A stretch of 64,000 bases of DNA from assembly GCA_016700095.1 (NCBI GenBank), contig CP065002.1, positions 240,463 to 304,462 of the forward strand, read 5' to 3'. Position 1 is the stretch's first letter. Each line of letters opens with the position of its first letter. The position numbers and the translations under genes are program-made. Source of the DNA: Candidatus Woesebacteria bacterium (GTDB lineage: Bacteria; Patescibacteriota; Microgenomatia; UBA8517). The notes under the pieces are model-generated. The model saw only the letters and a program-made list of their open reading frames with translations, was not told the origin of the DNA and did not search any database. This document shows, one piece after another, positions 5,775-59,685 of this stretch.

Positions 5775-6199
5775 ATATTGCGATATTAATTTTTATGAAG
5801 AAAAGGCTCACTATCCGGAGATTATTAAATAATAACTTATTGAAGATTAGATAATATAATTCTAAAACCGTAAGATTAAGGGCAGTTTGCAATATGGCAG
5901 AACGGGAACCGACAATCAACATAATTGCAGAGATTTCCAAAAAAATTGACGTTGCTGTTATGCTTACGGCTTGGGGGGTGCATTGCTTGGAATAATAACT
6001 CCTTCTGTGGCACTTGCTGCGATAGTCTATAGTATTGCTACCTATATTGGAGCCGACGCGATAAAGAAGAAGTAGAAAAGCTCTCATTAAATCCTTATAA
6101 ATCCGTGATTATTGTTTTCCTAATTTCCGGGTGATTCCTATGAATAGTTGTAACAAAGGTTATTTCTAATGGAAGGTAAAACATCATAAACAAGGAAGG

Positions 6200-6550
6200 T
6201 TACTTTTTGTAGACGACTCCAGAGTTTCCGGCACAGTATGATGCCTGCGAGGAATTAGAGGGTAAATAGGGCGGTAGTTGGTTATTTGCATAAGGATCGT
6301 AGCCGGGACGAATAAATGTGGTCTCTGCTTGTACCCATTCACCTTTTGCGAGATTCCCATCAAGATATATTACGGTATCCTCTTTACCTGATATATCAGG
6401 AGTAGATAGTGTTTGACTACTTAAAACTTCAAGATTTGTATGTTGTCCGCCTGCACACCCGTCTTTATCGCCACCACATGCACTCAGTACACCCAAGGTA
6501 AGTGTAGCTAAAAGTGTTAAGCGTTTTTCACTATCTCTCATAAACGGCAA
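6200..6550 (-). CDS. hypothetical lipoprotein-like secreted protein
   Basis: signal-like N-terminus with LSACGG lipobox-like motif. Confidence 0.35.
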   Translation of the reverse strand: MPFMRDSEKRLTLLATLTLGVLSACGGDKDGCAGGQHTNLEVLSSQTLSTPDISGKEDTVIYLDGNLAKGEWVQAETTFIRPGYDPYANNQLPPYLPSNSSQASYCAGNSGVVYKK

Positions 6551-6633
6551 TTATACCAAATACATGGCTTTATTGCCAGAATATCCAACCTATACAAATT
6601 AACCAAAAAAATACGCTATACTCATATTAGGCT

Positions 6634-7281
6634 ATGGTCGAGAATTATTACGTTTGTCCAAATCATCCTGATGTAAAAAAAGAAAATCCGGGAGAATGTC
6701 CTACGTGTGGTATGCTTTTGCAAGATAGAAAAGGGAATGTGATAGGTTTGAAAATTCATAAAAAAGGACGTAAGTTTAAGGAAAGTTCGATTTTATCCAA
6801 ACAGCAACCGCTGGTTGTGATTTTAACCATAGTTTTTCTTACTACCTTTTTGTTTTCCGCACGTGATTATGCTCGGGGTACATTAATTGAAACTAAAGTT
6901 CTTTCCAGTTTGTTAGGGAGTGCGATGTTGGTTTTTGGTAGTTTAAAAATGTTTGACGTGAAGGGTTTCGCACAAGGTTTTTCGAAATATGACTTGATTG
7001 CGCAAAGATATGAAATATACGGATTTTTATATCCATTTTTACAAGTTGTCCTGGCTCTTGCATTTTTACTGGATTTGGCTCTGGTTTCTGTAGGCTTTAC
7101 AACATTTCTGCTTTTCTCAATTAGCACCACGGGAATCCTGGCAAAACTTATGAAGGGGGAGAACGAAGTAGACGTGGGACTTGGAACTTATATACCCGTA
7201 CCACTTAGTTATTTTTCGCTAATTGAAAGTTTGGGAATTTCTGTAATGGCGTGTGTGATACTTGTGCATTTGTGGCTGTAA
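6634..7281 (+). CDS. fusion of N-terminal heavy-metal-binding domain (YVCPNHP...CPTCGM) with MauE/DoxX-family membrane domain
   Basis: CP-H...CPTC motif typical of the HMBD seen on Cu-ATPases and CusB; C-terminal 4-TM region with FG-LK-F...Y-LIA...Y-FLYPFLQVVLALAF pattern of MauE/DoxX. Confidence 0.55.
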   Translation: MVENYYVCPNHPDVKKENPGECPTCGMLLQDRKGNVIGLKIHKKGRKFKESSILSKQQPLVVILTIVFLTTFLFSARDYARGTLIETKVLSSLLGSAMLVFGSLKMFDVKGFAQGFSKYDLIAQRYEIYGFLYPFLQVVLALAFLLDLALVSVGFTTFLLFSISTTGILAKLMKGENEVDVGLGTYIPVPLSYFSLIESLGISVMACVILVHLWL

Positions 7282-27019: not shown

Positions 27020-27455
27020 GGGCGCAGCCCGCAACACCCAGCTAACAACAATCAACAAACAACTTTGATAGAATAAATTAATGAGTTTCAGATTTCTGAA
27101 ATTTAAAGTTTACCAGGATGCAAAAACACTGCATTCAGAAGTTGTTATTATATCGAGAAAATTCCCAAAAGATTTCTATTATCTCAAAGATCAGTTAAGA
27201 AGATGCTCTCTTTCAGTTGTCTTAAATATTGCTGAAGGTTCGGCTAAGACTTCCGACAAAGATTTTAATAGATATATCGAAAATTCACTGGGGTCTGCAA
27301 ATGAGGCAGCTTCTGCATTAGATGTTGCTTACTCCGAAAAAATAATAGAAATACATGATTATCACACTTTGTTAAAGTTAACAGAGGAAATTGTAAATCA
27401 ATTAGGTGGTTTTTCTAAAAAGTTGAAAGTTGGTGGTTGAGTGTTGTGGGTTACG
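27020..27455 (+). other. 16S intervening sequence forming a long hairpin (gcgcagcccgcaacac / gtgttgtgggttacgc) with a protein gene in the loop
   Basis: interrupts conserved 16S sequence between gcaagtggatcgg and gctagacgcgaacggctgagtaacacg. Confidence 0.6.
27081..27440 (+). CDS. four-helix-bundle protein of the rRNA intervening-sequence family (23S rRNA IVS protein-like)
   Basis: 119 aa; LHSEVVIISRKFPKDFYYLKDQLRRCSLSVVLNIAEGSAK pattern characteristic of IVS-encoded 4HB proteins; located inside the 16S IVS. Confidence 0.7.
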   Translation: MSFRFLKFKVYQDAKTLHSEVVIISRKFPKDFYYLKDQLRRCSLSVVLNIAEGSAKTSDKDFNRYIENSLGSANEAASALDVAYSEKIIEIHDYHTLLKLTEEIVNQLGGFSKKLKVGG

Positions 27456-27583
27456 CTAGACGCGAACGGCTGAGTAACACGTAGGAATCTACCTCTTGGC
27501 GGGGAATAGCCATGGGAAACCATGGTTAATACCGCATAAGATCTTCGGATGAAAGGATGTAACTATCCACCGAGAGAGGAGCC

Positions 27584-27626
<43 letters not shown>

Positions 27627-28149
27627 TACAACGGGTAGGGGACGTGAGAGCGTGTACCCCCAGAATGGTACTGAGATACGGACCATACACCTACGGGTGG
27701 CGCAACCAGGAATCGTGCGCAATGGGCGAAAGCCTGACGCCGCGACGCCGCGTGAAGGATTAAGGCCTATGGGTTGTAAACTTCTTTTACTTAAGTGGAG
27801 ACACTTTTGGGAATAAGCACCGGCTAACTTCGTGCCAGCAGCAGCGGTAATACGAAGGGTGCAAGCATTGTCCGGATTTATTGGGCGTAAAGCGTTCCGT
27901 AGGCGCATTGGAAAGTCACATTTCAAAGACCGGGGCTCAACCTCGGAAAGGGATGTGATACTACCTTTGTTGAAATATGTAGGGGCTACTGGAACTTAAC
28001 ATGTAGGAGTGAAATCCGTTGATATGTTAAGGAACACCGAGGGCGTAGGCAGGTAGCTGGACATTATTTGACGCTGATGGACGAAAGCCAGGGTAGCGAA
28101 AGGGATTAGAGACCCCTGTAGTCCTGGCCGTAAACGATGCTCGCTAGGG

Positions 28150-28290
28150 ATGTGGTCTACAAAGCATGTATGCTTTAAGAAACAGCCAACAATTAACAAA
28201 CAACTAACAACGAATTTAAGTTGGTAGTTGAGAGTTGAGGGTTGGGTGTTGTCTACAAAATGTATACATATTTTGTAGACTGCGTTCCGT
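28150..28290 (+). other. second 16S expansion/intervening hairpin (gtctacaaa...tttgtagac) with aacaattaacaaacaac motif
   Basis: replaces the short helix between ccgtaaacgatg and gctaacgcgttaagc. Confidence 0.5.
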
Positions 28291-28338
28291 AAGCTAACGC
28301 GTTAAGCGAGCCGCCTGGGGAGTACGAGCGCAAGCTTA

Positions 28339-28370
<32 letters not shown>

Positions 28371-29375
28371 CCAGTGGAGCATGTGGTTTAATTCGAGACG
28401 AACCGAAGAACCTTACCTGGACTTGACATCCCGACGACCGTTCTAGAGATAGAATTTTCACTATGTGACGTCGGTGACAGGTGCTGCATGGCTATCGTCA
28501 GCTCGTGCCGTAGGGTGTTCCCTTCAGTGGGGTAACGAGCGCAACCCTTGCCGTATGTTAAATTGTTCATACGGGACTGGTCGCCTTTGGCGACAGGAAG
28601 CGGGGACGATGTTAAGTCAGCATGGCCCTTATGTCCAGGGCTACACACATGCTACAATGGAGCCGACAGAGGGTTGCCAAAGAGCAATCTGGAGCTAATC
28701 CCAAAAACGGCTTCTCAGTTGGGATTGAGGGCTGCAATTCGCCCTCATGAACGCGGAATTGGTAGTAATCGCAAATCAGCTAAGTTGCGGTGAATACGTT
28801 CTCGGGTCTTGTACACACCGCCCGTCAAGTCAGAGGAGTTGGGGGCACCCGAACACCGAGAGTCTCGGTGGAAGGTGAAATCAGCAACTAGGATTAAGTC
28901 GTAACAAGGTATCCGTTCTGGAAGGAGCGGATGGATCACCTCCTTTCATGGAGTTGAGGTACGAAAAGTACAATAACACCCAAGTTTTCAGTCAGCGGTT
29001 TCTTTGTCTTTTTTAAGTTTACTTAAGGAAGAATAAAAACCGAGTCCGTATGTAACAACGATAAAGTACCGCTTCCAGTCATTTTTTGAGTGAGAGTATT
29101 AATCTTCAATTTTAAAAGTTTACTTCTAACAGTTTCGGATTTATTTTCGTAAAATCTTTAACCGTAGACTGATACAACCGACTTTAGTTGGTAGAGGATG
29201 TCATTTCGAACCTTATTCCCTTTACTGTAAATTCGTGAGTTAATTACATCAAGCATAGCTTAAATGCTTGACGATATATAAACCAAATGATTAAATGAGT
29301 TATGCCAAAGAGTAGAATAGTCCGCAGTGTATCTTGTGTAAGACTTCCCAACTAGATTTTATTTAATTTATTAAT

Positions 29376-33436: not shown

Positions 33437-33708
33437 CTATCTGCTAATTTCTAGTAATTATTCCCATCCAAGAAGTGAGTGTAAGAGCAGTACTCGTCTT
33501 TTTTGGCAACTAATTGCCAAAAGAGCCAAGTCCTGTTTGCCGGGCCCCACCCGGCACGCTTTAGAGGTTATTTTCTTACACCCACATCTTGAGCGGGAAG
33601 TATCTTTACTTGTGCAGGGTTGGACCCTGCAGACCAATTTTCATTTCCTCAAATAATTCACTTAAGAGATCAAAGTTGGTTAGTTTCCTGGATATAGAGA
33701 AAGGAATA

Positions 33709-35369: not shown

Positions 35370-36743
35370 CTAGTCTTCTCGGCCGCGCCATGCGCCAAAG
35401 GCCATCCCCAAGAGGATGGCTATGGGCGCGAGTGCGCACAACCATATAAGACTTGGCCCACTGCCGCCGGTCGAGGCACTTTTTAGGGTGCCAGGGGTGG
35501 AAACCAAAGGCGGCCGGCTGGGGGTGATGCTGACGGCGGGGGTGGGAGTGAGTTTGGTATCAGCGCATTGAGCGATGAAAACTACAGCGGGGTTACCCAC
35601 TTTTCCCGAGAATCGGTTGTTTTCGCTCTCAAAAAGAGGCGATAAAAACCAATTTTGAGGGAAGCTGTCACCTCCGCGGAACGCCTGCCCCTGACCAAGG
35701 GTTGACGTAACATTTGTTACAATCACACCCTCAGGGGGCAATTCCCATGTTCCCATGTATCCACTGCCGTCGGCCGTGTGCGGAAAGCCACCGAAATAGC
35801 TTCCAACGCCGATGGTTACGGTCATGGTTTCACCATGACCAGGCGTATATGACCCGTCAGGCCACTCACAGAAGTGATACCCTCTCAGGTACCCCTTAAT
35901 GATTCCCGGCGTGGGGCTGGGGGTGTTGGTGACCCACGGCGTTGCCGTTGTCGTCGGTGTTGGTGTAACCGTGCCAGGGGTGGGGGTGAAGGGCGATGTC
36001 GGTGTTGGCGTCACGGTCAATGTCGGTGTGAACGTTGGCGTCACGGTCAATGTCGGTGTGAACGTTGGCGTCACGGTCAATGTCGGTGTGAACGTTGGCG
36101 TCACGGTCAATGTCGGTGTGAACGTTGGCGTCACGGTCAATGTCGGTGTGAACGTTGGCGTCACGGTCAATGTCGGTGTGAACGTTGGCGTCACGGTCAA
36201 TGTCGGTGTGAACGTTGGCGTCACGGTCAATGTCGGTGTGAACGTTGGCGTCACGGTCAATGTCGGTGTGAACGTTGGTGTCCATGTGGGCGTGGGTTCG
36301 GGACAGTTTCCCTGAACTACTACTTGAACGCTTCCACCTGGGTTGGGAGATGTATCCACGTGATTAAATTCACAATGGACTTCTCCGCCCGGAGGTATTT
36401 GAAATCCAAAACTGTTTTGGTATGGGTCAACTGTTCCCAATAAACCCTCAAAACCGTTCGAGCAGGAGTAAGTTATTAACTCCCATTCGTCTGGTCCCGA
36501 CCATACGCTCTGTGTATTTACGTTTACCTCCATTGTTGATGTGTTGCTATCATTGACGATTGTGACATCGTCCGTGACTTGTTCACACCAATAACTGGGT
36601 GTTGTGTGCTCTGAGCACAGTATTGCACTTATCCAGTAGTAGTTTTGGGCTTGGATATTTGTGGCACTGCCACCTAACAACATTGTTGAAAACAATAGGA
36701 TCCCGAAGATCCATTTCGTGATTTTCGCTGTCTGTTTAGACAT
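35370..36743 (-). CDS. GC-rich secreted surface protein with 9-10 perfect TPTFTPTLTV repeats and C-terminal hydrophobic anchor plus RGRED tail
   Basis: signal peptide, 30-bp perfect DNA repeats, C-terminal TM. Confidence 0.6.
   Translation of the reverse strand: MSKQTAKITKWIFGILLFSTMLLGGSATNIQAQNYYWISAILCSEHTTPSYWCEQVTDDVTIVNDSNTSTMEVNVNTQSVWSGPDEWELITYSCSNGFEGLLGTVDPYQNSFGFQIPPGGEVHCEFNHVDTSPNPGGSVQVVVQGNCPEPTPTWTPTFTPTLTVTPTFTPTLTVTPTFTPTLTVTPTFTPTLTVTPTFTPTLTVTPTFTPTLTVTPTFTPTLTVTPTFTPTLTVTPTFTPTLTVTPTPTSPFTPTPGTVTPTPTTTATPWVTNTPSPTPGIIKGYLRGYHFCEWPDGSYTPGHGETMTVTIGVGSYFGGFPHTADGSGYMGTWELPPEGVIVTNVTSTLGQGQAFRGGDSFPQNWFLSPLFESENNRFSGKVGNPAVVFIAQCADTKLTPTPAVSITPSRPPLVSTPGTLKSASTGGSGPSLIWLCALAPIAILLGMAFGAWRGRED
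35995..36290. repeat. about 10 perfect tandem copies of a 30-bp unit (gtcaatgtcggtgtgaacgttggcgtcacg) inside the surface-protein gene
   Basis: direct reading. Confidence 0.9.
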
Positions 36744-37314: not shown

Positions 37315-37570
37315 AATTTTGCATATTTCCCCCAATAAGGGTAAGTAGTAACTTTCTTAAGTTACACCCTTTTGCCTTAACCCTCGATTTATTAATCGGG
37401 GTTTGCCGTATGTCCATCCACAACTAATGCAATTTGGATAAATCCAATAAAGGATTTGTCCTCCTACGCAATGAGCTACGGAAGGACTGCACTCCGATTA
37501 TTATCGGAGTTTGCCATTCACTAAGTTTTTAAAGAGCTAGCGGTAACTTGTACCTTTCTCTATTAGTAAT

Positions 37571-37624
37571 CTGTAATTGGCAGCTCGCGTTGGTTAAATT
37601 TAACTTTGGCCAACTGCCACTTAC
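37571..37624 (+). repeat. exact 54-bp direct repeat, copy 1 (ctgtaattggcagctcgcgttggttaaatttaactttggccaactgccacttac)
   Basis: identical copy at 38151-38204. Confidence 0.9.
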
Positions 37625-37802
37625 TGATTACTAATGTCAGGAATTAGGCACTAGGTAGTTAGATAATTACCTAATTCCTAAACTGATCCAGTATCCTATA
37701 TTGCGTACCTGCACAAATGTCGTTTGAGCGTTAGTTGTCTGCCAGTTATGTGACCTTCTGACGCAACAAACAACAAACAACAAACAACAATCAACTGTCA
37801 AC

Positions 37803-37935
37803 TTGTAACAAGTAACCTGTAACAAATAGTAAATAACCTGTAACAAGTAACTAGTAACAAGTAACTAGTAACAAGTAACTAGTAACAAATAACTAGTAAC
37901 AAATAACCTGTAACAAATAACCTGTAACCATTAAC
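37803..37935. repeat. about 9 tandem 14-bp units (taacaagtaactag / taacaaataacctg) preceded by an aacaaac microsatellite
   Basis: direct reading. Confidence 0.85.
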
Positions 37936-38150
37936 CGATAACTGGTAACTTGTTACCATTAATTATTAGTTTTTCGAACCTTATGAGTTTCGGTGATACA
38001 CCCATCAAGACTGTTGTCATGCACGCTTCCTTGTCATTCCCGCGGAAGCGGGAATCCAGCCTAGATCCCATAGATCCCCGATCAGGTCGGGGATGACAAA
38101 ATATGAAACTTGTGTACCCGATACTTTTTTACTTTTGCACTTTTAGCACC

Positions 38151-38204
38151 CTGTAATTGGCAGCTCGCGTTGGTTAAATTTAACTTTGGCCAACTGCCAC
38201 TTAC
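38151..38204 (+). repeat. exact 54-bp direct repeat, copy 2
   Basis: identical to 37571-37624. Confidence 0.9.
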
Positions 38205-38974
38205 AGACGGCTAATATCCTAACAAGATATCGAATATCGAATATCGAATATCTAACACCTGCTATAGACATATGCTACTTGCTTTTCAATTACCCCAAAT
38301 GTCTTTTGGTTGCCAATTGCTCGACAAATAGGTGACAGACGGGCTCTATCGGGCTTTTATTGCCTTTGTTTGATTTGCATACCCAGCTTACGGCTAAGTA
38401 TCAAATTCAATTTCTTGGCTTCTTGGCAGACAGGTCAGTCGAACTCACAAGTCGTGTTTCAACCAATCTGCCTGCCCAAAAGCCAAGGCTGTAGTTAGTG
38501 ATATTTTTCGACCTTCAAACGCAAAAAACCACACCTTAGAGTGTGGTTAAACTATATGCAAACTATTAAAGCCAAACCCGAGTACCTACCCGCAGTTTAA
38601 GCAGTATTCTCCCTTTAGCTTTTTTTCCTTCTAATAAATAAAAAGTATTAAGGCTTAAAAAGCTTATAAAGGAGTAAAAAAATAGTTTGCACAAGATCTG
38701 CCGTTTGACAAGATCAATTAATTTCCTCTAAAGCTACCTAGATTTCTCTAAGTGTTGGCAGTCTATCAAAGAGAGTGATAATTGTCAAGAGGGGAAATAA
38801 AGTAGCAAGTAGCAAGTAGCAAGTAGGTGGTAGATGGGTAGGAATTGAGTAAATACTAATTCCTAAACTCTAATTTCCTAAAAACAACCCCGGGGGTTGG
38901 AATAGCCTCAATCTAACCCCCGGGGTTGGAATTTGAAAACTTGGAAACTAATTCATTGCCTCTGTGAGGTATGG

Positions 38975-41959
38975 CTATTTTCCAATTTTTGCAAGCTCGG
39001 CTTTGAGGATGGATAGCTTATCTGCGTCGTTTTTCATTTTTTCCTTAATTTTTTTGTTTTCTGCTTCCTGGTCAAACGCCGGTCTTACCGGTGGATACTG
39101 TGGCGGATATTGATTCGTTGGGTAGAAGGGTGCGTTGGGATACTGTGTTGGTGGATAATTTGTATTTGGATAGTTCTGCGGTTCCATCAACGGATTTTGT
39201 TCTTGAGGCGGGTAATACTGAGGATTAGGATTGTTTGTATTTTTCACGGCTTTATTTTCACTCCTAAACTGAGGCTGTTTTGGCCTGGCGTGGTGACCGG
39301 CTTTCGGATTCGAGTATGATTTTGCTTGAGGTTTGGGAAGGGTGGAATTTGGACTTTGGACAACATTTTGTCCAGAATCGTAGAGCTGTTGTTTTTGAGT
39401 GTTTGGATTTTTATTAAATGGTTTGTTATTTTCTTTTAGCCACGGAAACTGGGGAACATCACTTGCTGCCTGGGCGTTGGGGTTGGGATGTGATTTAGTG
39501 TGTTTCGGCCTTCCTTCTTTCACTTCAGGACTTTTTTCACTCAATATATCTTTTTCACCTTGCACCAAAGGAATGGCGTGGCTTGTTTGTTGGGGAACAG
39601 CAATAGGTGCCGGAATAATTCTATTTGCCAAATCATTAAATTGGCTTGGTTCGGGAGCGGTGTTATTTACTGCCTGACCCGGATTGAGTATTGGGAGTGT
39701 TTCACCCATAGTTGCATTTTGAATTGGTATTGATCCAAGTGGCATGCCGGAAGGGATGATTTCTTGTGAGTCGACATCATAAGTTTCGTTTTCTGAAACT
39801 TCTGCCAACGACGGTTCTTTTGCCGATCGCGACCATCTTTCGCGGCTGACTTTGATAACCTTTTCTCGATTGCTGTTTATACTTTCCGGAAGTGAAAGCG
39901 TGGTTGCCAAAAATGGACGGGTCGAGTGCGCATCGATCATGAGTTTTATCGCAATTTGATAATTTGCCAAATTAACCATATCGTTTTCGCTAAATACCTC
40001 GGCAAATTCTTTATTAAATACCCTCGCGTCATCAGCTCCTACGGAAAAAGAAATCATCGTACCCGCATTTCCCAAAATTGCCTTTTGAACAGTATCGGGA
40101 ATTTGAGCCATATACTGATTTGCAAGAAGTAGGGCTAAGCCGTATTTGCGCGCTTCAGACAAAATTTTCACAAAGCTGTCTGTTGCGAAATTCTGAAACT
40201 CGTCAACATACAGGTAAAAAGGAACTCGATCTTCTTTGGGTGTGTCGACTCGGTGCATAGCCGCGAGTTGGAATTTCGTAATTAGCATTGCACCAAGAAG
40301 CGAAGCGTTGTCTTCACCAAGTCTACCTTGCGACAAATTCACCAAGAGTATTTTTTTCTGATTCATAATGTCATCAATCGAGATTGAACTTTTGGGTGTG
40401 CCGATTATTCGCCGTATCATTGGTGAAGTCACGAACTGTCCAACTTTGTTTTGGATTGGTGCTATAGCTTCTTTCTGTAATTTCTCAGGCATTGCATCAA
40501 ATTCGTCTTGCCAGAAATGAACCAAGGCTTCGTCTTTAAGTTTAGATACGACACGGTTTCTGTACGACTGGTTAGCTAAAATTCTCAAAACATCAGCCAG
40601 TGTGGAATTGGGAATTTCTGTCAGCGTGAGGAAAGAGTTTCTTAAAATGTATTCCATCCGTGCGGACCAGACATTTGACCAGACTTTAGTAAAAATGCTC
40701 ATAAGGCCTGCTACAACAAGTTCGGCTTCTTCGCGGTTGGTTACCTCTAATGGATTAAGAATGATCGGGTATTCTTTATCTGCCGGATTAAAGTAAATAG
40801 TGTCGTTGATCCTGGAGCTTGGAATGTAGTTTAATAAGTCCTCGCATAAATCTCCGTGAGGATCGATAACGGCGATACCGCGATCTTTCTTCAAATCATC
40901 GACACCCATGTTTGCTATCATTGTCGATTTACCGGTTCCGGTTTTTCCTACCACCCAGACATGCCTGAGGCGATCTTTGTCTTTGATGCCAAAAACTGTG
41001 TCTTTGTTTTGATAACGTGTTTTTGCAAAGAAATTTATCCTTGATTTTTCGGCAGGGGACTTGTCGGTTGCAATCGGTAAGTTTTGCGGAGGTTCAGTGA
41101 GAACCGAATTTCCCCAAGCAATTGTCGGAGTTTTTATCAAAGAGCTGGGAAGATGCCAAAGCGTTGCGATTTCCTGAATATTTAATATATGTTTGTCAGC
41201 AACCCTTCTTTCTTTAAGATATTCGATTTCTTCGGCAAGTTTTCCCTTTTTGGGAATCTTGACTACGAAGGCGTTACCGTCGGCTCGGGTATAAATTTCA
41301 AAAGTATTAATCAGATCTCCAAGTGTTTCTTCACTTGGTGCAAGAATTCTCAGAGAAGTTTTGAAGCCGGGATAAGATATTTTTTCTTTGATTATTGAAG
41401 CATCAGGTCTGGGTTTATATGTACCGTCCTCGTTTTTGGTGCCAAACTCAGCGTATTTCTGACCGTTTGCTTGCCAATTGCTGTTGACGGTTTCAAGAGC
41501 GATCTGAAACATTATAAAATCATCGGCAGGAGCTTTCGACAAAACACTCAAAATTGACGACATCGGATCGACATCTTTGAACGACGGATATACTGTTAGT
41601 GGGTAATAATCACCTTGTTTAAGTTTGAAATATGCCACTACATAATTTGTAAGGTCGACATGAGAGATGGGATCGTTAACCTTATCAATGGTTGTAAGGG
41701 GATAGCTGGAGTGGATCTGAGTTTCGATAAAAGGAATAAGGTTGATGTCGCAAGTTAGCTGAAAATGAACTTGCCCGGCAAAGTGAATAATTTCAAGCGC
41801 AAGAGGTTGGGTATTTGTAGTCGATTTCAGAAAACCAAAAAGTGACCCCCCTGAACCCGGATTGATTTGGGTAAGTGCCGTCAAAAAAGTTTGCGCCGCC
41901 TCTGGAGTAACTTCAGTGTTACGGGGAACTTTGAGTAAAAGTGTGGTTAAGTTGGACAT
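38975..41959 (-). CDS. P-loop ATPase of the VirB4/VirD4/TraD/HerA (type IV secretion-like) superfamily with a roughly 300-aa Q/N/P/Y-rich disordered C-terminal tail
   Basis: Walker A VVGKTGTGKST, Walker B LYVDEFQNF, ARKYGLALLLANQYMAQI...AILGNAGTMISF motif typical of T4SS ATPases/coupling proteins; no N-terminal TM helices. Confidence 0.6.
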   Translation of the reverse strand: MSNLTTLLLKVPRNTEVTPEAAQTFLTALTQINPGSGGSLFGFLKSTTNTQPLALEIIHFAGQVHFQLTCDINLIPFIETQIHSSYPLTTIDKVNDPISHVDLTNYVVAYFKLKQGDYYPLTVYPSFKDVDPMSSILSVLSKAPADDFIMFQIALETVNSNWQANGQKYAEFGTKNEDGTYKPRPDASIIKEKISYPGFKTSLRILAPSEETLGDLINTFEIYTRADGNAFVVKIPKKGKLAEEIEYLKERRVADKHILNIQEIATLWHLPSSLIKTPTIAWGNSVLTEPPQNLPIATDKSPAEKSRINFFAKTRYQNKDTVFGIKDKDRLRHVWVVGKTGTGKSTMIANMGVDDLKKDRGIAVIDPHGDLCEDLLNYIPSSRINDTIYFNPADKEYPIILNPLEVTNREEAELVVAGLMSIFTKVWSNVWSARMEYILRNSFLTLTEIPNSTLADVLRILANQSYRNRVVSKLKDEALVHFWQDEFDAMPEKLQKEAIAPIQNKVGQFVTSPMIRRIIGTPKSSISIDDIMNQKKILLVNLSQGRLGEDNASLLGAMLITKFQLAAMHRVDTPKEDRVPFYLYVDEFQNFATDSFVKILSEARKYGLALLLANQYMAQIPDTVQKAILGNAGTMISFSVGADDARVFNKEFAEVFSENDMVNLANYQIAIKLMIDAHSTRPFLATTLSLPESINSNREKVIKVSRERWSRSAKEPSLAEVSENETYDVDSQEIIPSGMPLGSIPIQNATMGETLPILNPGQAVNNTAPEPSQFNDLANRIIPAPIAVPQQTSHAIPLVQGEKDILSEKSPEVKEGRPKHTKSHPNPNAQAASDVPQFPWLKENNKPFNKNPNTQKQQLYDSGQNVVQSPNSTLPKPQAKSYSNPKAGHHARPKQPQFRSENKAVKNTNNPNPQYYPPQEQNPLMEPQNYPNTNYPPTQYPNAPFYPTNQYPPQYPPVRPAFDQEAENKKIKEKMKNDADKLSILKAELAKIGK

Positions 41960-42129
41960 GGTATTTATAGTATAACAGGAGAAGAAAGGTGTGATAAATA
42001 TAGATAATAGAAAACGTTTTCAAATATTTTAGGTAAAGCTATACGGGCTATACAGGGTCCAGCCCTGGAAGGGCTGGACCCTGTAATATCCATTTGTGTT
42101 ATAATAGCCACGCAAAGGAGGTGATATTA

Positions 42130-42288
42130 ATGAGAGAATCTGGAGATCCACTAACACCATTACAGACACAAGACGAGTTTGAAAGTACACACAAACCGGA
42201 AGTTTCAGGCACTGCTTCTGATGAACCAGAAACAGAAAATACACAGACACCTGTACCTGCTAGTGACAACACAGCACAACAAAGCTAA
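42130..42288 (+). CDS. small highly acidic S/T/P/E-rich protein with extended SD (aaggaggtgata)
   Basis: ATG 8 nt after perfect anti-SD complement; divergent from the ATPase gene. Confidence 0.4.
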   Translation: MRESGDPLTPLQTQDEFESTHKPEVSGTASDEPETENTQTPVPASDNTAQQS

Positions 42289-42485
42289 ACCGTAGCTATT
42301 TACGAAATTTCGTATTTATAGGTGTTTAGGGTTGGATTGGGGATGCATTCATAAAATACTCGAGTAAAGACACTGAGGGGATTGTTATTGTGTATTAAGA
42401 AATTATTATTTATTAAAAGTAGCTTTAACTTTATGACTATGCACGAGGTAATTATTTATAGATTAAGATTAAGGAGGTGATATAT

Positions 42486-42698
42486 ATGAAAGATAGAATA
42501 CAAAGAGTAGTGGATATTGAAACAGGAAAGCTGCAGGCAAATTCAAGAAAACCTGGAGGAAAAAAAGATCGAAAAATTGCAATAAAGGCCGCGGAGCTGA
42601 TGTTAGAAAATCCTGATATGACTCCAGAAATAGCACTTAACAAACTTGATCCTGAAAGTGCAAGGCTTTTGGGTGAACTTAGGGAGAAGGAAATTTAA
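42486..42698 (+). CDS. small basic/acidic hypothetical protein with the same extended SD
   Basis: aaggaggtgatatat-ATG. Confidence 0.4.
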   Translation: MKDRIQRVVDIETGKLQANSRKPGGKKDRKIAIKAAELMLENPDMTPEIALNKLDPESARLLGELREKEI

Positions 42699-42955
42699 AA
42701 GGGTTTATATGACTAATAGAATTTTATTGATGGTTGTAGTTTGACCAATTATTTTTTGTCTACTCCTAAAGATTAAACTCCCTCGTTATTGGGAGCCGCG
42801 CATAGTAATTTGTATTTAGAAGTAGATTGCGATAGGGAAACTGACGATGAGAAAGTTGAGTTTCTTATTTCAGCTATAAATATAATCACAAATCTCAACT
42901 AATATTTACGCACTAAGTTTCTGAATCAGAAATCTTAACTCTAAATATATATTAG

Positions 42956-43029
42956 TGGGCGCGCATGGACTCGAACCATGGACCTCCAAATTATCAGTTT
43001 GGCGCTCTAACCAACTGAGCTACGCGCCC
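42956..43029 (-). tRNA. tRNA-Ile (anticodon GAT), inverted relative to the rRNA genes
   Basis: reverse complement gives gggcgcgtagctcagttggttagagcgccaaacTGATaatttgg...ggttcgagtccatgcgcgccca. Confidence 0.8.
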
Positions 43030-43931: not shown

Positions 43932-44084
43932 TTTCTAGTATAAATACTAGATATAATTCGCACATTAAATTTTACTTGCCCTACATTCATCTAAAATTCG
44001 AAAAACGAATTTATAAGAGGAAGAACAATGGAGCGTTGAAAGCAAGCTTTCTGCCTGCTTAATTTAGTGGACTCGTTCCGACGC

Positions 44085-44308
44085 GGGCCGTTAGCTCAGT
44101 TGGATAAGCAAAGCTTGGCCACTTGATCTAACCACCTTACGGGTTGTTAGCTCAGTTGGATAAGCAAAGCTTGGCCACTTGATCTAACCACCTTACGGGT
44201 TGTTAGCTCAGTTGGATAAGCAAAGCTTGGCCACTTGATCTAACCACCTTACGGGCCGTTAGCTCAGTTGGATAAGCAAAGCTTGGCCACTTGATCTAAT
44301 CGCCTTAC
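44085..44308 (+). repeat. 4 x 56-bp tandem units, each starting with tRNA-Ala nt 1-19 (gggccgttagctcagttgg) followed by ataagcaaagcttggccacttgatctaaccaccttac
   Basis: unit starts 44085, 44141, 44197, 44253; tRNA starts 44309. Confidence 0.9.
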
Positions 44309-44385
44309 GGGCCGTTAGCTCAGTTGGCTAGAGCGCTACATTTGCAATGTAGAGGTCGTGGGTTCGAATCCCACACGGTCCACCA
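44309..44385 (+). tRNA. tRNA-Ala (anticodon TGC) with G3:U70 and encoded CCA
   Basis: acceptor gggccgt/acggtcc, anticodon loop tTTGCaa, T-loop ttcgaat, CCA present. Confidence 0.85.
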
Positions 44386-45034
44386 ATGAGTACATTGATG
44401 AACCATGTGGTTTTCGAGGAATGCAACCAAGTAGGGAAAGTGCATGGCGAATCCCACACGGTCCACTCATTAGGAATTGGGAATTAAGTAGTTAGTAGTT
44501 AGTAGATGGTAGATTGGTAATAGAAATTTGGATTTTTAACATTAGTATTTAGTTTTAAGTTTCAAGTACCAACAATTAAGAATTGCGGAATACTTGACAC
44601 TAAATACTTATTAGTAGGTAATAACAACGCAGAAAAATTTTGTTGTGAGTTGTGAGAACCGGTTAGACTTAACCAGTTTTACAGAACACACCAACAGATT
44701 TGTACTTTAACAACTAAGAGAATGAAGTCACTTTAAGTGTACTTCATGGAAAAGGCCGTGAACCATCATTTATTTGATGATTCACAACACAAAAGCAATT
44801 TTGCAAAGCATGATGCTTTGCATTGAGAAAAATCCCGTACTTGATACGGGATGAAACGCTAAGTTTAAGTTTACTTAACGCAGACAGTGGATGCCTTGGT
44901 CTAGATTACCGAAGAAGGACGTGCAAGACTGCGAAAAGCGTCGGTGAGTTGTCAAGAAACATTACAGCCGGCGATGTCCGAATGGGGAAACCCGCACTGC
45001 TTCACCGCAGTGAACTCGTGCTCCAAGGGGCACT

Positions 45035-45141
45035 CTAAACAGGTAACAATTAACTACCAACTAGAATTAGTAATTGACTTTTAACTATAAGTTAACAGTT
45101 GAAAACTCATTGGTGTGTTGATTGTTGTTTGTTTGGAGTGC
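45035..45141 (+). other. 23S intervening hairpin 1 (helix 9/10 region)
   Basis: extra sequence between ggggcactc and ggagtgcc relative to conserved 23S; aacaattaac...gttgattgttg arms. Confidence 0.5.
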
Positions 45142-45254
45142 CTATTAAGGCGCGTAGAGGGAACCGCCCGAACTGAAACATCTAAGTAGGGCGAGGAAGA
45201 GAAATCAACGAGATTGCCTAAGTAGCGGCGAGCGAAACGGCAAGAGCCCAAAGG

Positions 45255-45355
45255 TGTGCGTAGCACACAACAGTTAACAATTAACATTCAACTACCAACT
45301 TTAAATTAAAGTGTTGGCAATTGATTGTTGTAAGTTGAAAGTTGTGTGCTATGCG
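45255..45355 (+). other. 23S intervening hairpin 2
   Basis: cacaacagttaacaattaac ... gttgtaagttgaaagttgtgtg arms. Confidence 0.45.
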
Positions 45356-45652
45356 CACCGGTTGTGGGACCGCAACGTGGTAGTTTTTTTGATAGCAGAA
45401 TGACATGGAATAGTCAGCCATAGAACGTGATAGACGTGTATGCGAAATCAAAAGGACGCCTAGCGGTATCCCGAGTACGACGATGCATCTACATCGTCGG
45501 AATCTGGGGGAACCATCCTCCAAGGCTAAATATGATCTAGAACCGATAGTGGACAAGTACCGTGAGGGAAAGGTGAAAAGAAGGGCGGAACGCCCAGTGA
45601 AATAGAACCTGAAACTGTTTGCGAACAATCCGATAGAGCCAGTGCATAGCAC

Positions 45653-45742
45653 TGAACTATTAACTTCCAACACACAACAATTGACATTTGGTTAATTGTT
45701 GGGAGCTTGTATAGAAGCGTGTTGATTTGTTGATGGTTCCGC
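45653..45742 (+). other. 23S intervening hairpin 3 (helix 25 region, a classical IVS site)
   Basis: aacacacaacaattgac ... gcgtgttgatttgttgatgg arms. Confidence 0.5.
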
Positions 45743-46369
45743 GCTGTGCGCGGGTAATATCGTGCCTATTGAAGAATGAGCCAGTGAGTTTTCGTGTTTT
45801 TTAAGTTTAAGCCGTAATTACGGCGAAGGCGTAGGGAAACCAAGTGTGATAAGCGCGAATAAAAAAACGCGGAAGACCCGAAACCAGGTGAGCTATCCAT
45901 GAGCAGGGTGAAGCCCATAGAAATATGGTGTGGAAGCCCGAACTCGTATCAGATGCAATTGATTGGGATGACTTGTGGATAGGGGTAATATGCTAATCGT
46001 ACCTGGAGATAGCTGGTTCTCCCCGAAAGGTGTTTAGGCACCGTGGCATCGAAAAACTACAGGGTGGTAGAGCTACTGAATGGGATAATGAGGGTAATCT
46101 GAGTTATCTCAACCAAACTCCGAATAACTTGTAGTATGCGTTGCTAGACAGCCACACGGGGCTAAGCTCGTGTGACAAAAGGGAAACAACCCGGACTCTC
46201 GGCTAAGGTCTCTAATGTATCTTAAGTTTTTAAGGAAGTTTTTTATCATAGACAGCTAGGAGGTTGGCTTAGAAGCAGCCATCCTTTAAAGAAAGCGTAA
46301 CAGCTCACTAGTCGATGATAAGAAGCGCCGAAGATGTATCGAGGATTAAAGATACTACCGAAGCTAGAG

Positions 46370-46462
46370 GTGTCGTGCTTTGCACGCAACAACCAACAAA
46401 AACAGCCAACAGTCAACAATTAAGTTGGAAATTGGAAGTTGATTGCTGCGTGCAGAGTGCGG
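46370..46462 (+). other. 23S intervening hairpin 4 (helix 45 region, a classical IVS site)
   Basis: gcacgcaacaaccaacaaaaacagccaac ... ggaagttgattgctgcgtgc arms. Confidence 0.5.
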
Positions 46463-48293
46463 CGCGGTAGGGGAGCGTTCCAAGGGCTTTGAAGGTGTGC
46501 TGTAAGGCATGCTGGAGCGCTTGGAAGTGAGAATGCTGGCATAAGTAGCTTACAAGCTAGGTGAGAATCCTAGCCGCCGAATGTCCAAGGTTTCCGTCGC
46601 GAGGATCGTCCCCGACGGGTTAGTCGGCTCCTAAGGCGAGGCCATAAAGGCGTAGTCGATGGACAACTAGTTAATATTCTAGTACTTTTCTTGTGTTGTT
46701 TGACCTGGGGATCAACTGGATTGGAGGACCGAAGCCGGTTCGCGAAGTCCGGTGCAAGCTGTAAGGTAGTTCATATTGGAAAATCCGTATGAATGATTAA
46801 TCGAGCAGTTATGCAGAGTCTGGTGAGAGCCGGACGATTTTGAATAATTCAATCTACCAGAAACAATTCGCAGTTAGACACAAGGAGAGCTGTACCGCAA
46901 ACCAACACAGGTGGACTGGTCGAGAAGACTAAGGCGAGCGAGAGAAGGGGGCTCAAGGAACTCGGCAAAAAAACTACCCGTAACTTCGGGAGATGGGTTG
47001 CCCCAATTCTATTTTATTATTGGGGTCGCAGCGAAAGTTTGTTAATCGACTGTTTACCAAAAACACAGGTCCGTGCAAACTCGTAAGAGGACGTATACGG
47101 GCTGACGCCTGCCCAGTGCCGGTAAGTTAAACGGCGGGGTGCCCCGAGCTTGTCTCGGGATGCTCCAAAGCGAAGCTCCGGTAAACGGCAGCAGTAACTA
47201 TAACTGTTCTACGGTAGCGAAATTCCTTGTCGTGTAAGTTACGACCCGCACGAAAGGCGTAACGAGTTAACAACTGTCTCGAGCCTCTACTCGGCGAAAT
47301 TGCGATGGCTGTGAAGACGCGGCCTACTTCCACCAGGACAAGAAGACCCCGTGGAGCTTTACTATAGCTTGACATTGATATGTGCATTTTAATTGTCTAG
47401 TGTAGGAGGGAGTTCCGACCTTGTGTCGGAACAACAATGTAACACCTCTCTTTGAAGTGTGGCATATCTTACTTACGTCGCCTGGAAACGGCGACAGGGA
47501 CAGTGTTAGGTGGGTAGTTTGTCTGGGGCGGATCCCTGCCAAAGTGTAACGCAGGGGTACAAAGGTTAGCTTGGCACGGATGGACATCGTGCTGTAAGTA
47601 TAAAGGCATAAGCTAGCTTGACTGCGACAGTGACGGCTGGAGCAGGTGCGAAAGCAGGTCTTAGTGATCCTCCGATCCACCATGGGTGTGGACGGAGCTT
47701 ATCGGATAAAAGCTACCCCGGGGATAACAGAGTGGTCGCACCCGAGCGTCCTTAGCGACGGTGCGGTTCGCTACCTCGATGTCGGCTCAAGGTATCCTGG
47801 GGCTGGAGAAGGTCCCAAGGGTTGGTCTGTTCGCCCATTAAAACCTTACGCGAGCTGGGTTCAAACCGTCGTAAGACAGGTTGGACTGTATCCGGTGGGA
47901 GCGTTAGAATCTTGAGGAGAGCTCACCTCAGTACGAGAGGACCAGGTGGGGGGAATCCCTAGTGTGCCGGTTGTGGCGTCAGCTGCAAAGCCGGGTAGCT
48001 ACATTCCTTGTTGGATAACCGCTGAAAGCATCTTAAGTGGGAAGCCCACTCCAAGATGAGGATTCTTTTAGACTCCTGGTAGAACACCAGGTAAACGACA
48101 GGCAGTGGAAGCCCCGTGAGGGGTTAAGCTAACCTGAAGCGAATCAGTCGAAAAACTTAAACTAACGTTTCTCTCAGTGTAAAGCATTGGGCTTTACACA
48201 ACAAATATAGGGTCTTTAGAAAGATATTTGGAAGCCATTTCCATGAGTACACTTAAAGTCACTTCATCTCTTAGTAATTTTTCAGGATAATGT

Positions 48294-54334: not shown

Positions 54335-55255
54335 TTGGTAATGATATCTATGTTTTATAAAAATGCAATACTTCTTGCAGTAACCGCACTAACTCTAACT
54401 GCGCTTCCCATGTCAACGGTATTTGCGACAAACACACAAGTTCCAAGTTTTCCCTCATGTCCGATAGGAAATACCGGTGATTGGGTGCATTCGGATCATG
54501 GTTTTCATCATATTCCGGGTCAGGAAGCTACGATTGAAGGAAGTGATGACGTTTACCAGCTTGAAAATTCCAATTTTATCCAATGCCTTTGCGCAATCGA
54601 CGATTCAAAATCAACACAAACAATCTGGTGGAATATTACAAATTCAGATCTTAGTGATCAAGAAATTCAAAATTACCTGAGTGATGGTTGGTACTTGGAA
54701 AACGGTGGCTCGTGGAATCTAATCCAAGGAAATACATATCTTGCCAAGAATTCGAGTCGTTTATGTGCCGAGCCAACACCGACAATTACACCAGTTCCAA
54801 CGATCACGCTAACACCAACGCCCGGAAAAGAATTAGCAAGATGTACAGGCATCGAAGCAAATCCCAGAGAAGGAACCGCGGCGCTGTATGTTAAATTTGC
54901 CGGAGCAGGAATAGATTATCAAGGCCAAATCAAAGAATATCATTGGGATTTTGGTGACAACTCCAACAATCAACCCGAAAGAATAAATACTAAAAATCCT
55001 GAAGCAATTCATATCTACAACAATAAAGGAACTTACAAAGCTAAGCTTCAAGTGATGGATAGTCGTGGAGTATGGCATGGTGGAAATAGTGAATGTGAAT
55101 TGGAAGTAGTCGTGAAAGAAGAACCGACTCCGCAAGTAGCAGGTGCCGCCACAGAGCTTCCAAGTACTGGTTTCTCAGCCCCTAACGTTATTGTTGCTGG
55201 TCTTGGATTGACCGCACTTGGTGCAATCATTAAAAGACGCTTCAAATTGATTTAA
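54335..55255 (+). CDS. LPXTG-anchored surface protein with PKD-like domain
   Basis: signal peptide; WDFGDNSN...Y...GTYKAKLQV PKD-like pattern; C-terminal LPSTG + hydrophobic helix + KRRFK tail. Confidence 0.7.
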   Translation: MVMISMFYKNAILLAVTALTLTALPMSTVFATNTQVPSFPSCPIGNTGDWVHSDHGFHHIPGQEATIEGSDDVYQLENSNFIQCLCAIDDSKSTQTIWWNITNSDLSDQEIQNYLSDGWYLENGGSWNLIQGNTYLAKNSSRLCAEPTPTITPVPTITLTPTPGKELARCTGIEANPREGTAALYVKFAGAGIDYQGQIKEYHWDFGDNSNNQPERINTKNPEAIHIYNNKGTYKAKLQVMDSRGVWHGGNSECELEVVVKEEPTPQVAGAATELPSTGFSAPNVIVAGLGLTALGAIIKRRFKLI

Positions 55256-55297: not shown

Positions 55298-56041
55298 ATG
55301 GGAACAATGTATCCTCACAAGATTATCTATGACGCAGACACTCACGTAATTCACAGCGAAGTATCTTTACATGCGGGAAAATTTGCGCGATTCATGTACA
55401 ATTTTTTGCGTGGAGCGGGAATTGGCTTGATTATCTTTGTTGTCTTGTCTTTTGTTGTCAGTATCGAACCGATAATCAGAGAAGAAATAGTTTATTACAT
55501 TAAAAATACGAGTGAGAATAATTCTCTCCAAGAAACACACTTAACAAATTTACCAATTGTTGAACAGACAATTGCTGTGCAAAACGAGGCTAAGTCATAC
55601 GGGGTAGATCCGCATTTTTCCATTGTTATTCCCAAAATTGACGCGAGGGCAAATATCATACCAAACGTAAGTGCGGTTAATGCCCCGGAATACTCCCAAG
55701 CGCTCCAAAAGGGAATTGCACATGCCGCGGGAACATATTTCCCGGGTCAGGGAAAAAATATCTATCTTTTTTCGCACTCTACCGATTTCGAATATAATGT
55801 GGCCAGATATAATGCGGTATTTTACCTTTTGAGAAAACTGGAACGAGGCGATAGAATTATTGTTTATTTTTCCGATGAGCGCTTTATTTATGAAGTGCAA
55901 GATAAATTTATTGTTAACGCAGTTGACACAAAGTGGCTTACGGAAGAAACCGAAACGGAAACATTGTATTTACAAACGTGTGATCCGCCGGGAACTACTT
56001 GGAAGAGACTGATTGTGAAGGCAGTGCCTGTTGAAAGTTAA
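55298..56041 (+). CDS. sortase family transpeptidase
   Basis: N-terminal TM, conserved His region (LFSHS) and TLYLQTCD catalytic-Cys motif; directly downstream of the LPXTG substrate. Confidence 0.7.
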   Translation: MGTMYPHKIIYDADTHVIHSEVSLHAGKFARFMYNFLRGAGIGLIIFVVLSFVVSIEPIIREEIVYYIKNTSENNSLQETHLTNLPIVEQTIAVQNEAKSYGVDPHFSIVIPKIDARANIIPNVSAVNAPEYSQALQKGIAHAAGTYFPGQGKNIYLFSHSTDFEYNVARYNAVFYLLRKLERGDRIIVYFSDERFIYEVQDKFIVNAVDTKWLTEETETETLYLQTCDPPGTTWKRLIVKAVPVES

Positions 56042-58896: not shown

Positions 58897-59685
58897 TTAT
58901 GGGTTATTTGGGGGTGGGTATTGACAGGATCCTTCATTCATGTTTATACGTGCATAAAGATATGGAGCAGTAAAACTTGATCTTTGTCCTGAATAAATTA
59001 CACCTGCAGTATCTGTATAACAGCTATATACCCAATAGCTTTGACCGATTTCAATATTGTCAATGAAAGAGTAATAACCAACACCATCCGATATGGTTGT
59101 GCTAATAATATTATTGCTGGAATTCAGTAATGTTACATGAGCATTTGAGCGAGGTATGTAATCCTGAGAAAGAAAGTATCTCACAGTTCCAGCAATAAGT
59201 GGCGCCTCTGGTGTAAGTGTTGGTGTCGGTTCTCCTGGTGGTGAAGTCGGAATTCCACTGGGCCAAACAGGATCGGTAGGTTCAGGTCCTGGGGGAACAG
59301 TTGGTCTAGGCCCCCCAGGATTACCGGGCGATCCTCCCCAATCCTTGCAAAGTGATGACCCTGAGAATTGTATATTGAATTCTGATATTTCAAATGAAGT
59401 AAAACCAATCCCCAATATACATCCAACCAAATTTACAATGAAAAATATGCTTAAAATTACGGTCATTCCTGCAATGCCTTGAGCGATTTTCTTTTTAGCT
59501 TGCTCAATTTGATTTACATTGCCACCCGAGGATATCCAAGATATCGCGCCGGTTATTATCATGAAAACAAGAATAATTACACCGGCAAGTATCACTAGTC
59601 CGACAAAAGATTTGAAAATTGAGCTGAAATAATCAGTGCCATTCATGCTGGCGAGTTCGGGAGTAAAGACTGGATTATTTATCAT
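58897..59685 (-). CDS. TrbC/VirB2-like pilin-domain protein with Pro-rich linker and Cys-containing C-terminal domain
   Basis: two hydrophobic helices around SSGGN...AKKKIAQGIAGMTVILSIFFIV, pattern common in CPR T4SS-type pilins. Confidence 0.4.
   Translation of the reverse strand: MINNPVFTPELASMNGTDYFSSIFKSFVGLVILAGVIILVFMIITGAISWISSGGNVNQIEQAKKKIAQGIAGMTVILSIFFIVNLVGCILGIGFTSFEISEFNIQFSGSSLCKDWGGSPGNPGGPRPTVPPGPEPTDPVWPSGIPTSPPGEPTPTLTPEAPLIAGTVRYFLSQDYIPRSNAHVTLLNSSNNIISTTISDGVGYYSFIDNIEIGQSYWVYSCYTDTAGVIYSGQRSSFTAPYLYARINMNEGSCQYPPPNNP

Follow-up and report, generated by a model that had tools for sequence, protein, structure and literature searches.

The 64,000-nucleotide stretch analysed here (the window; positions 240,463 to 304,462 of contig CP065002.1, Candidatus Woesebacteria) carries, on its reverse strand, a gene for a 994-aa ATPase, the orthologue in Woesebacteria of a chromosomal family of ATPases that occurs across Patescibacteria. 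The protein is an ordinary member of this known, uncharacterised family, with a long C-terminal tail specific to its clade; judged from its sequence, its motor belongs with the type IV coupling proteins (T4CPs) of type IV secretion systems (T4SSs). The full family architecture is an optional single transmembrane (TM) helix, the DUF8128 domain, a TrwB/VirD4-type motor into which an all-alpha domain is inserted, and a probably disordered tail that closes with a short conserved C-terminal motif. Coordinates are those of the window unless another locus (L and a number) is named; family proteins are given as P and a number. The gene and its parts are:

38975..41959, reverse strand: ATPase coding sequence (DUF8128, T4CP-like), 994 aa, defined by its open reading frame (ORF) with ATG start, Pfam and the NCBI entry
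41060..41959, reverse strand: N-terminal domain, residues 1–300, PF26449 (DUF8128), modelled as soluble alpha/beta (precomputed Pfam, AF2, Foldseek, invariant columns)
39815..41059, reverse strand: motor domain, residues 301–715, RecA-like NTPase with an inserted all-alpha domain (helices at about 409–533; Pfam, hhalign, Foldseek, AF2)
38978..39814, reverse strand: C-terminal tail, residues 716–994, P/N/Q/Y-rich low complexity (composition, alignment of P0001–P0006)
38885..38930, reverse strand: intrinsic-terminator-like hairpin followed by U5, about 45 nt past the ATPase stop (dG −30.7 kcal/mol, z −4.3)

The window protein (P0001; NCBI QQS39270.1, ‘type IV secretion system DNA-binding domain-containing protein’, from a Candidatus Woesebacteria metagenome-assembled genome with a 1.27-Mb contig) has the Walker A (GKTGTGKS; residues 338–345, 40925–40948), Walker B (FYLYVDEFQNF; residues 581–591, 40187–40219) and RKYG...ANQ...GNxGT (RKYGLALLLANQYMAQIPDTVQKAILGNAGTMISF; residues 604–638, 40046–40150) motifs, confirming what an earlier note, made from the letters of the window alone, had read in this ORF. 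In Pfam, PF10412 (TrwB_AAD_bind) matches residues 331–641 with 47.7 bits (cutoff 20.5), PF12696 (TraG-D_C) matches residues 580–661 above cutoff, and PF01935 (DUF87) matches residues 331–544 with 34.4 bits (cutoff 23.2), overlapping the T4CP models and weaker than them; the VirB4 family PF03135 gave no match in the Pfam scan. No curated NCBIfam T4CP, VirB4, Ced or HerA model reaches its cutoff, the best match being to the VirD4-like CD1115 family, far below threshold (conju_CD1115, 45.7 bits vs 250); SXT_TraD (40.3 vs 366), the VirB4 model TIGR00929 (17.8 vs 643) and TraD_Ftype (17.1 vs 521) also fall far short.

Profile comparison points the same way. A profile of 99 family members aligned by hhalign with R388 TrwB (residues 120–408; 281 columns, probability 97%, E 4.7e-11) over a stretch that begins at Walker A, takes in the all-alpha domain and reaches the motif past Walker B, and with R388 VirB4 (TrwK) over the P-loop only (probability 2%); both R388 sequences were taken from NC_028464. 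A profile search of PDB sequences placed TrwB (2.6e-6) and DotL (7e-5) ahead of HerA (4.5e-3). The AF2 model of residues 1–720 (pLDDT 92.6) aligned by Foldseek with about 405 of the roughly 420 TrwB residues (TMt 0.6–0.67), and DotL (6sz9) and HerA were also among its matches. The catalytic residues are intact, and those invariant across the family include K344, D586, E587, R604, K605, Q615, Q619 and N631, which, with the TrwB-type profile match, argues for a T4CP-type ATPase that is probably active. Of the VirB4/VirD4/TraD class proposed earlier, membership among T4SS ATPases and the T4CP (TrwB/VirD4) motor therefore stand and a VirB4-type motor falls away; likewise, in the comparison with VirB4, T4SS and DUF87 models that the earlier note had suggested, the DUF87 and TrwB_AAD_bind models score above cutoff and the VirB4 model does not match.

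The ATG lies directly 3′ of a −10-like box, and no Shine-Dalgarno (SD) sequence was seen before it. As the gene has its own terminator, it appears to be monocistronic.

Residues 1–300 are modelled as a soluble alpha/beta domain (pLDDT 92.9) ending in an invariant WHLP motif (H269, P271). Every one of the top nine PDB Foldseek matches of the DUF8128 model is a TrwK/VirB4 structure (E 5e-6 to 1.6e-4, TMq 0.40–0.49), and no HerA chain, with its N-terminal barrel, is among the N-domain matches listed. The highest 19-residue Kyte-Doolittle mean anywhere in the protein is 1.19, so a TM helix is not predicted, and the earlier statement that N-terminal TM helices are absent holds. Elsewhere in the family a single N-terminal TM helix is found in about half of the diverse members that have the N-domain (among P0134–P0235), and in none of the Woesebacteria proteins. 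Of 40 diverse members extended at the N-terminus by 18 aa or more, 35 have a strongly hydrophobic helix and then basic residues before DUF8128, so much of the family would be membrane-anchored; the Woesebacteria subfamily, including the window protein, is on hydropathy the TM-less variant. The two modules are separable, given that DUF8128 in L075 is a separate 448-aa gene (4078–5424; hhalign 99.9%, E 9e-33) abutting a motor-only gene (5430–6656) and that 61 of 149 diverse family representatives begin at the motor.

The tail, measured from the conserved ...VSRERW end of the core, is about 280–285 aa long, and its composition (residues 716–994: P 15%, N 11%, Q 9%; core, residues 851–960: P 22%, N 14.5%, Q 13.6%, Y 9%) bears out the earlier description of a long Q/N/P/Y-rich low-complexity region. 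Two other statements about it did not survive. It had been called unusual for the family, and tails of Patescibacterial DUF8128 ATPases have a median of 166 aa among diverse representatives, reaching at least 250 aa in 41 of 134. It had also been called prion-like, a term classically applied to regions with at least 30 Q+N per 80 residues and few prolines and charges; here Q+N peaks at 25 per 80 aa, in a stretch with 13 prolines and 14 charged residues. In close Woesebacteria relatives the median tail is 36 aa, and tails of 266–520 aa occur there only in P0001–P0006 (73–80% identity), marking the tail, on these comparisons, as a clade-specific expansion. Tails of the diverse family are low-complexity P/S/E/K/Q/A sequences, many ending in L.PGQ.V.F or IPEDVLK..L. 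Those of the six members of the long-tail clade cannot be aligned outside two islands, listed here with the core:

39506–39574, reverse strand: tail island 1, IPLVQGEKDILSEKSPEVKEGRP, residues 796–818 (alignment of P0001–P0006)
39089–39232, reverse strand: YP-rich core of the tail (composition)
38978–39088, reverse strand: C-terminal module, YPP(V/P)RPAFD and a predicted charged helix of about 30 aa ending KLSILKAELAKIGK (alignment of P0001–P0006)

From composition and alignment, the tail may be a disordered tether carrying short binding modules. A membrane-targeting amphipathic helix at its end was considered and is unsupported, and unlikely, because the hydrophobic moment is low (about 0.3) and the mean hydrophobicity negative; the helix more likely forms a coiled coil or binds a partner. 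The C-terminus of TraD binds TraM and the DotL tail binds adaptors, so C-terminal extensions are not foreign to T4CPs.

The combination of PF26449, PF10412, PF01935 and PF12696 is common to nearly all of the 120 homologues listed. Hundreds of Woesebacteria orthologues match the window ATPase over its full length with 63–80% identity, and diverse representatives align over residues 1–715. An exhaustive HMMER scan gave 6299 clusters at 50% identity with E<=1e-30 and 22,930 with E<=1e-3, and at least 593 loci were found in GTDB species genomes of Microgenomates, Saccharibacteria, Dojkabacteria, Parcubacteria, Doudnabacteria and Peribacteria. A published survey counted 5,713 VirD4-type T4CP homologues in 2,918 Patescibacteria genomes, only 148 of them near virB4, and its authors considered exaptation of the orphan homologues possible (Quinonero-Coronel et al. 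2025, PMC12102498).

In the window the gene lies between the parts of a split rRNA operon:

27394..28946, forward strand: 16S rRNA gene, left boundary of an interval of about 16 kb
42955..43029, reverse strand: tRNA-Ile(GAT), conserved neighbour of the ATPase gene in Woesebacteria
44309..48164, forward strand: tRNA-Ala(TGC) (44309–44385) and 23S rRNA gene (44863–48164), right boundary

The ATPase gene adjoins tRNA-Ile and is transcribed away from the 23S gene in seven related contigs, six of them distinct; both rRNA genes are on the fetched stretch in L001/L002, L009 and L010, and one is on the contig in L003/L004, L013 and L014. To the right of 23S the window has 5S, S1, RadA and sortase genes, as in related contigs. 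The other proteins of the 16S–23S interval (424, 720, 457, 112 and 103 aa) showed no conservation in related loci at E<=0.1, with S1 and RadA, as positive controls, matched at E<=1e-90; the 720-aa gene thus has no orthologue in the 713–721-aa genes that lie downstream in L003 and L010. Phylum-wide, an rRNA gene is found in the flanks of two of 80 loci, both from close relatives, so the rRNA linkage is specific to the Woesebacteria-like lineage and not a property of the family. Immediate neighbours across the phylum (56 + 61 loci) are housekeeping genes, e.g. topoisomerase I, RuvX, Rho and ribosomal proteins, with no VirB4, VirB6, VirB8 or relaxase gene among them; nor were any of these found in the window; the earlier note had proposed searching the contig for VirB6, relaxase or competence genes. 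No nuclease (NurA-type) partner adjoins the ATPase gene in the window or in the compared loci. One partner is recurrent: in 20 of 56 loci (L037–L091), mostly from Saccharibacteria, a co-oriented upstream ORF of about 345–365 aa, 13–55 nt from the ATPase match, encodes a protein with Sigma70_r4 and HARE-HTH domains, which may be a conserved functional partner in the Saccharibacterial lineage and is not present in the window.

Several other features of this operon (27394–48409) were noted. The 16S–23S gap is about 16 kb here and about 8.5–14 kb in relatives, and tRNA-Ile runs opposite to tRNA-Ala and 23S in the window and L002, and not in L003, L009, L010 or L014. The window 23S gene spans 3302 nt vs a 2925-nt model, giving about 375 nt of insertions, and 23S and 16S genes of relatives are interrupted by LAGLIDADG and GIY-YIG homing-endonuclease genes (L009, 2975–7582; L010, 3400–8925 and 18966–20804). 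A 56-nt tandem repeat (4.4 copies, 96% identical; 44084–44327) runs into tRNA-Ala(TGC) from upstream; each unit opens with the first ~20 nt of the tRNA gene (GGGCCGTTAGCTCAGTTGG) and then diverges. It had no match in L003, the related locus tested; it may have arisen by slippage or by duplicating part of the tRNA, at its 5′ end, several times over.

On the other side of the ATPase start, two small ORFs are divergently oriented and accompanied by a palindrome:

42052..42084, no strand assigned: perfect 16-bp palindrome around a 3-nt loop, within the 170 nt separating the divergent genes (dG −35.5/−36.8, z −6.4/−7.0)
42130–42288 (with SD 42115–42288), forward strand: s1, 52 aa, QQS39271.1, hypothetical; SD AAGGAGGTGA at 42115–42124, ATG at 42130
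42486–42698 (with SD 42471–42698), forward strand: s2, 70 aa, QQS39272.1, hypothetical; SD AAGGAGGTGA at 42471–42480, ATG at 42486

Both are preceded by the same perfect 10-nt SD with a 5-nt spacer, in agreement with the earlier note. This sequence occurs four times in the window vs 0.17 expected: ahead of s1, of s2 and of a gene at 7783, and, as its complement, at the 16S 3′ end. Codon-usage log-odds favour the annotated frame over the other five (z 3.0 for s1 and 3.9 for s2 vs shuffles), in a test that is weak for 52–70 codons and inflated since shuffles can contain stop codons. Given the improbable paired SDs and the frame-specific codon usage, s1 and s2 are probably translated. They had been introduced together as hyper-acidic proteins, which is true of s1 (D+E 11, K+R 2, net about −9) and not of s2 (D+E 13, K+R 15, net about +2); the plural in the earlier title is thus wrong, its text having itself described one of the two as acidic.

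A DNA-mimic, anti-restriction role (Ocr/ArdA-like) had also been suggested for such a protein, and the searches lend it nothing: among 5.8 billion proteins s1 and s2 each match themselves alone, neither has a match in Pfam (for s1, none at E<=0.1), NCBIfam, PHROGs (for s1, none at E<=1) or plasmids (tblastn), and tblastn found no copy in 10 related loci. Ocr and ArdA are about 117–170 aa long. With them s1 shares net negative charge only; it is just 52 aa, lacks a sequence match in Pfam, PHROGs and plasmids, and lies outside any conjugative leading region. Its S/T/P-rich composition (20 of 52 residues, 38%) suggests disorder rather than a folded mimic. The spacer between tRNA-Ile and the ATPase gene is 996 nt in the window vs 47–494 nt in relatives, which, with the lack of copies there, makes s1 and s2 a strain-specific insertion. 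They are ORFans in a variable slot, not part of the ATPase system. In the closest relatives toxin-antitoxin genes adjoin the ATPase gene (PhdYeFM in L005, 3763–4014; DUF6922/AbiEii in L006, 369–1216; MazE/Fic in L007, 305–969); the window’s upstream slot holds s1 and s2. The palindrome has no U-tract and no match in related loci, and is a candidate operator or insulator hairpin; a one-mismatch copy of one arm lies at 33617–33629.

What such an ATPase does can be read in several ways. With moderate confidence, we favour a hexameric ATPase that works at the membrane much like a coupling protein, is attached by DUF8128 to a complex containing VirB4 and uses its tail to bring in partners or substrates. 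Like coupling proteins, it would form a hexamer that either translocates with NTP as its fuel or receives substrates. Its docking partner, contacted through DUF8128, would most plausibly be the inner-membrane complex, VirB4 included, of a Patescibacterial T4SS encoded elsewhere, on the model of the contacts that the VirB4 N-domain makes with VirB3 and VirB8, and in the TM-less subfamily this docking would replace the membrane anchor. The flexible tail of 280 aa, with its QGEKD island and PRPAFD–charged-helix module, would act as a tether for a partner or substrate, with TraD–TraM and DotL–adaptors as analogues. The essential Saccharibacterial T4SS cluster has no recognisable coupling protein or relaxase (PMC10633639, PMC12857230). 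Several points weigh against this proposal. The N-domain resembles VirB4 in structure alone, at TM scores below 0.5, and the profile alignment with TrwK covers the P-loop alone. Disorder and helix in the tail are read from composition and alignment, and the connection to a T4SS is one that we infer. The window’s only other T4SS-flavoured gene, for a 262-aa protein 17 kb from the ATPase gene (58897–59685, reverse strand), is a sub-threshold match to T4SS_pilin (PF18895; 23.6 bits vs 26.6 cutoff). Finally, according to a passage of PMC12102498 that cites Wang 2023, the t4cp homologue of Southlakia epibionticum ML1 is non-essential and its T4SS genes are essential, which argues against an obligatory role in the T4SS.

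That non-essentiality also counts against a rather doubtful alternative, in which the protein is an exapted housekeeping DNA translocase doing FtsK- or HerA-like chromosome work (in segregation, repair, recombination or the resolution of dimers), its tail binding a partner in the divisome or nucleoid. A near-universal chromosomal gene among housekeeping neighbours, a DNA-binding Sigma70_r4 + HARE-HTH protein encoded upstream in the 20 loci noted above, a DUF87/HerA domain above cutoff with HerA structures among the Foldseek matches, and the 148 of 5,713 homologues near virB4, for which exaptation has been raised in print (PMC12102498), would all fit it; however, in sequence and profile TrwB and DotL are clearly more similar to it than HerA is, TraG-D_C is present, and anchoring of half of the diverse members by an N-terminal helix, together with the likeness of the N-domain to VirB4, suggests a membrane machine. 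Import of environmental or host DNA, with the ATPase as an uptake motor like archaeal Ced or ComFA in nucleotide-auxotrophic epibionts, seems distinctly unlikely: Patescibacteria are naturally competent and reliant on scavenged nucleotides (PMC12857230, PMC10633639) and in NCBIfam the protein weakly matches CedD (E 1e-9, 37.7 bits) and CedB, but the Ced matches are far under cutoff (37.7 vs 600 bits) and confined to the P-loop region, competence of ML1 is attributed to type IV pili and ComEC (PMC12857230), and no com genes adjoin the ATPase gene in the window or the compared loci. Very improbable is the reading of the earlier note, an island bearing a conjugative DNA-transfer module, either remnant or novel, and divergent leading-region genes for DNA-mimic anti-restriction proteins. 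The T4CP-class motor, the adjoining acidic s1 with its strong SD, and the variable flanks with toxin-antitoxin genes in close relatives would suit it, but the gene keeps its place beside rRNA and tRNA-Ile genes in the seven related contigs and belongs to a family found throughout the phylum, relaxase, VirB4 and VirB6 genes are missing from the window and from the neighbours at 56–61 other loci, and s1 and s2 have no homologue in protein, plasmid or phage-family searches. Judged by the gene’s fixed position beside the rRNA genes, the ‘island’ is no mobile element but variable sequence surrounding a core gene that stays in place.

In practical terms the result for this locus is a negative one: nothing marks it as a mobile DNA-transfer island or its small genes as an anti-restriction pair, and it should not be counted as a conjugative element. 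The coupling-protein-like reading matters since Patescibacteria need a T4SS for epibiotic growth and that T4SS has no recognised coupling protein or substrate; the DUF8128–T4CP family is the obvious candidate for the former and is still uncharacterised. Handles for testing are the resemblance in fold of the N-domain to VirB4, the membrane anchor that is optional across lineages and the conserved terminal motifs of the tails. A bolder version, which we regard as unlikely, would make DUF8128 ATPases a third, hybrid lineage of T4SS ATPases, joining a VirB4-type docking domain to a VirD4-type motor, sometimes as two genes; they would supply the ‘missing’ coupling protein to the Patescibacterial T4SS, which is essential and lacks a relaxase, docking on the VirB4 hexamer by the VirB4-like domain in place of TM helices and selecting substrates through their disordered tails. 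If that were true, embedding in the rRNA operon would tie ATPase expression to growth in Woesebacteria.

Downstream of the ATPase gene, 1.6 kb (37315–38974) contain no ORF of 60 aa or more. This region includes two copies of a palindromic element of about 92 nt (37548–37638 and 38127–38218; 86% identical, each matching its own reverse complement) and 7-nt microsatellites (37764–37936, 38227–38252, 38800–38826), and a permissive Rfam scan of it returned chance-level matches only. A candidate small RNA lies just 3′ of the ATPase gene (about 38675–38790, reverse strand) and in L005 (4093–4190), L008 (3674–3800) and L009 (12894–13060). Its putative promoter is conserved (CTTGACAA..TG.TA.A.T; −35/−10 at 38788–38760), a 5′ hairpin with compensatory changes between loci precedes an invariant single-stranded GCUUUAGAGG.A, and a terminator hairpin with U-run ends it in the window and L005; it has no Rfam match. 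Convergent with the ATPase gene is a gene for an 82-aa coiled-coil-like protein (QQS39269.1; 37066–37314, forward strand), whose first ~40 residues show weak conservation (41–45% identity) in the products of small genes that occupy the matching downstream place in L003, L006 and L010, and which has a weak PHROG match (phrog_33872, E 1e-3). The 457-aa protein beyond it (35370–36743, reverse strand) has an N-terminal hydrophobic signal-like segment, a C-terminal hydrophobic anchor and 9.3 near-perfect 30-nt repeats (36004–36282) encoding TPTFTPTLTV. The window also has a sortase gene (55298–56041) and a gene for a PKD-domain protein (54335–55255).

Compared with known systems, the window ATPase shares with TrwB/VirD4/TraD/TraG the RecA-like nucleotide-binding domain with an inserted all-alpha domain and alignable Walker A/B and RK(Y/A)G...Q motifs, but has a 300-aa soluble domain in place of the N-terminal TM domain, is not linked to a relaxase and falls under every NCBIfam T4CP cutoff. 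VirB4 (TrwK) has the same soluble two-domain layout, an N-terminal alpha/beta domain and then the ATPase, and the full-length model aligns with it over about 850 columns (Foldseek), whereas the motor sequence is not VirB4-type on the hhalign, TIGR00929 and PF03135 results given above. HerA and FtsK belong to the same ATPase superfamily, with PF01935 above cutoff and HerA structures among the matches, but are less similar to the window ATPase than T4CPs are. As in DotL (IcmO) and F-plasmid TraD, a T4CP motor is followed by a long C-terminal extension, in those proteins a platform for adaptors or substrates, although here the extension is low-complexity P/Q/N/Y sequence with just two short conserved modules. 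Closest are the orphan VirD4-type T4CPs of Patescibacteria (PMC12102498), which have the same domains; the window gene is likewise chromosomal and away from virB4 and relaxase genes, and it differs in its tail (285 aa vs a median of 36 in close Woesebacteria), in lacking the TM helix that about half of the diverse lineages have, and in its position, in this lineage, inside a split rRNA operon.

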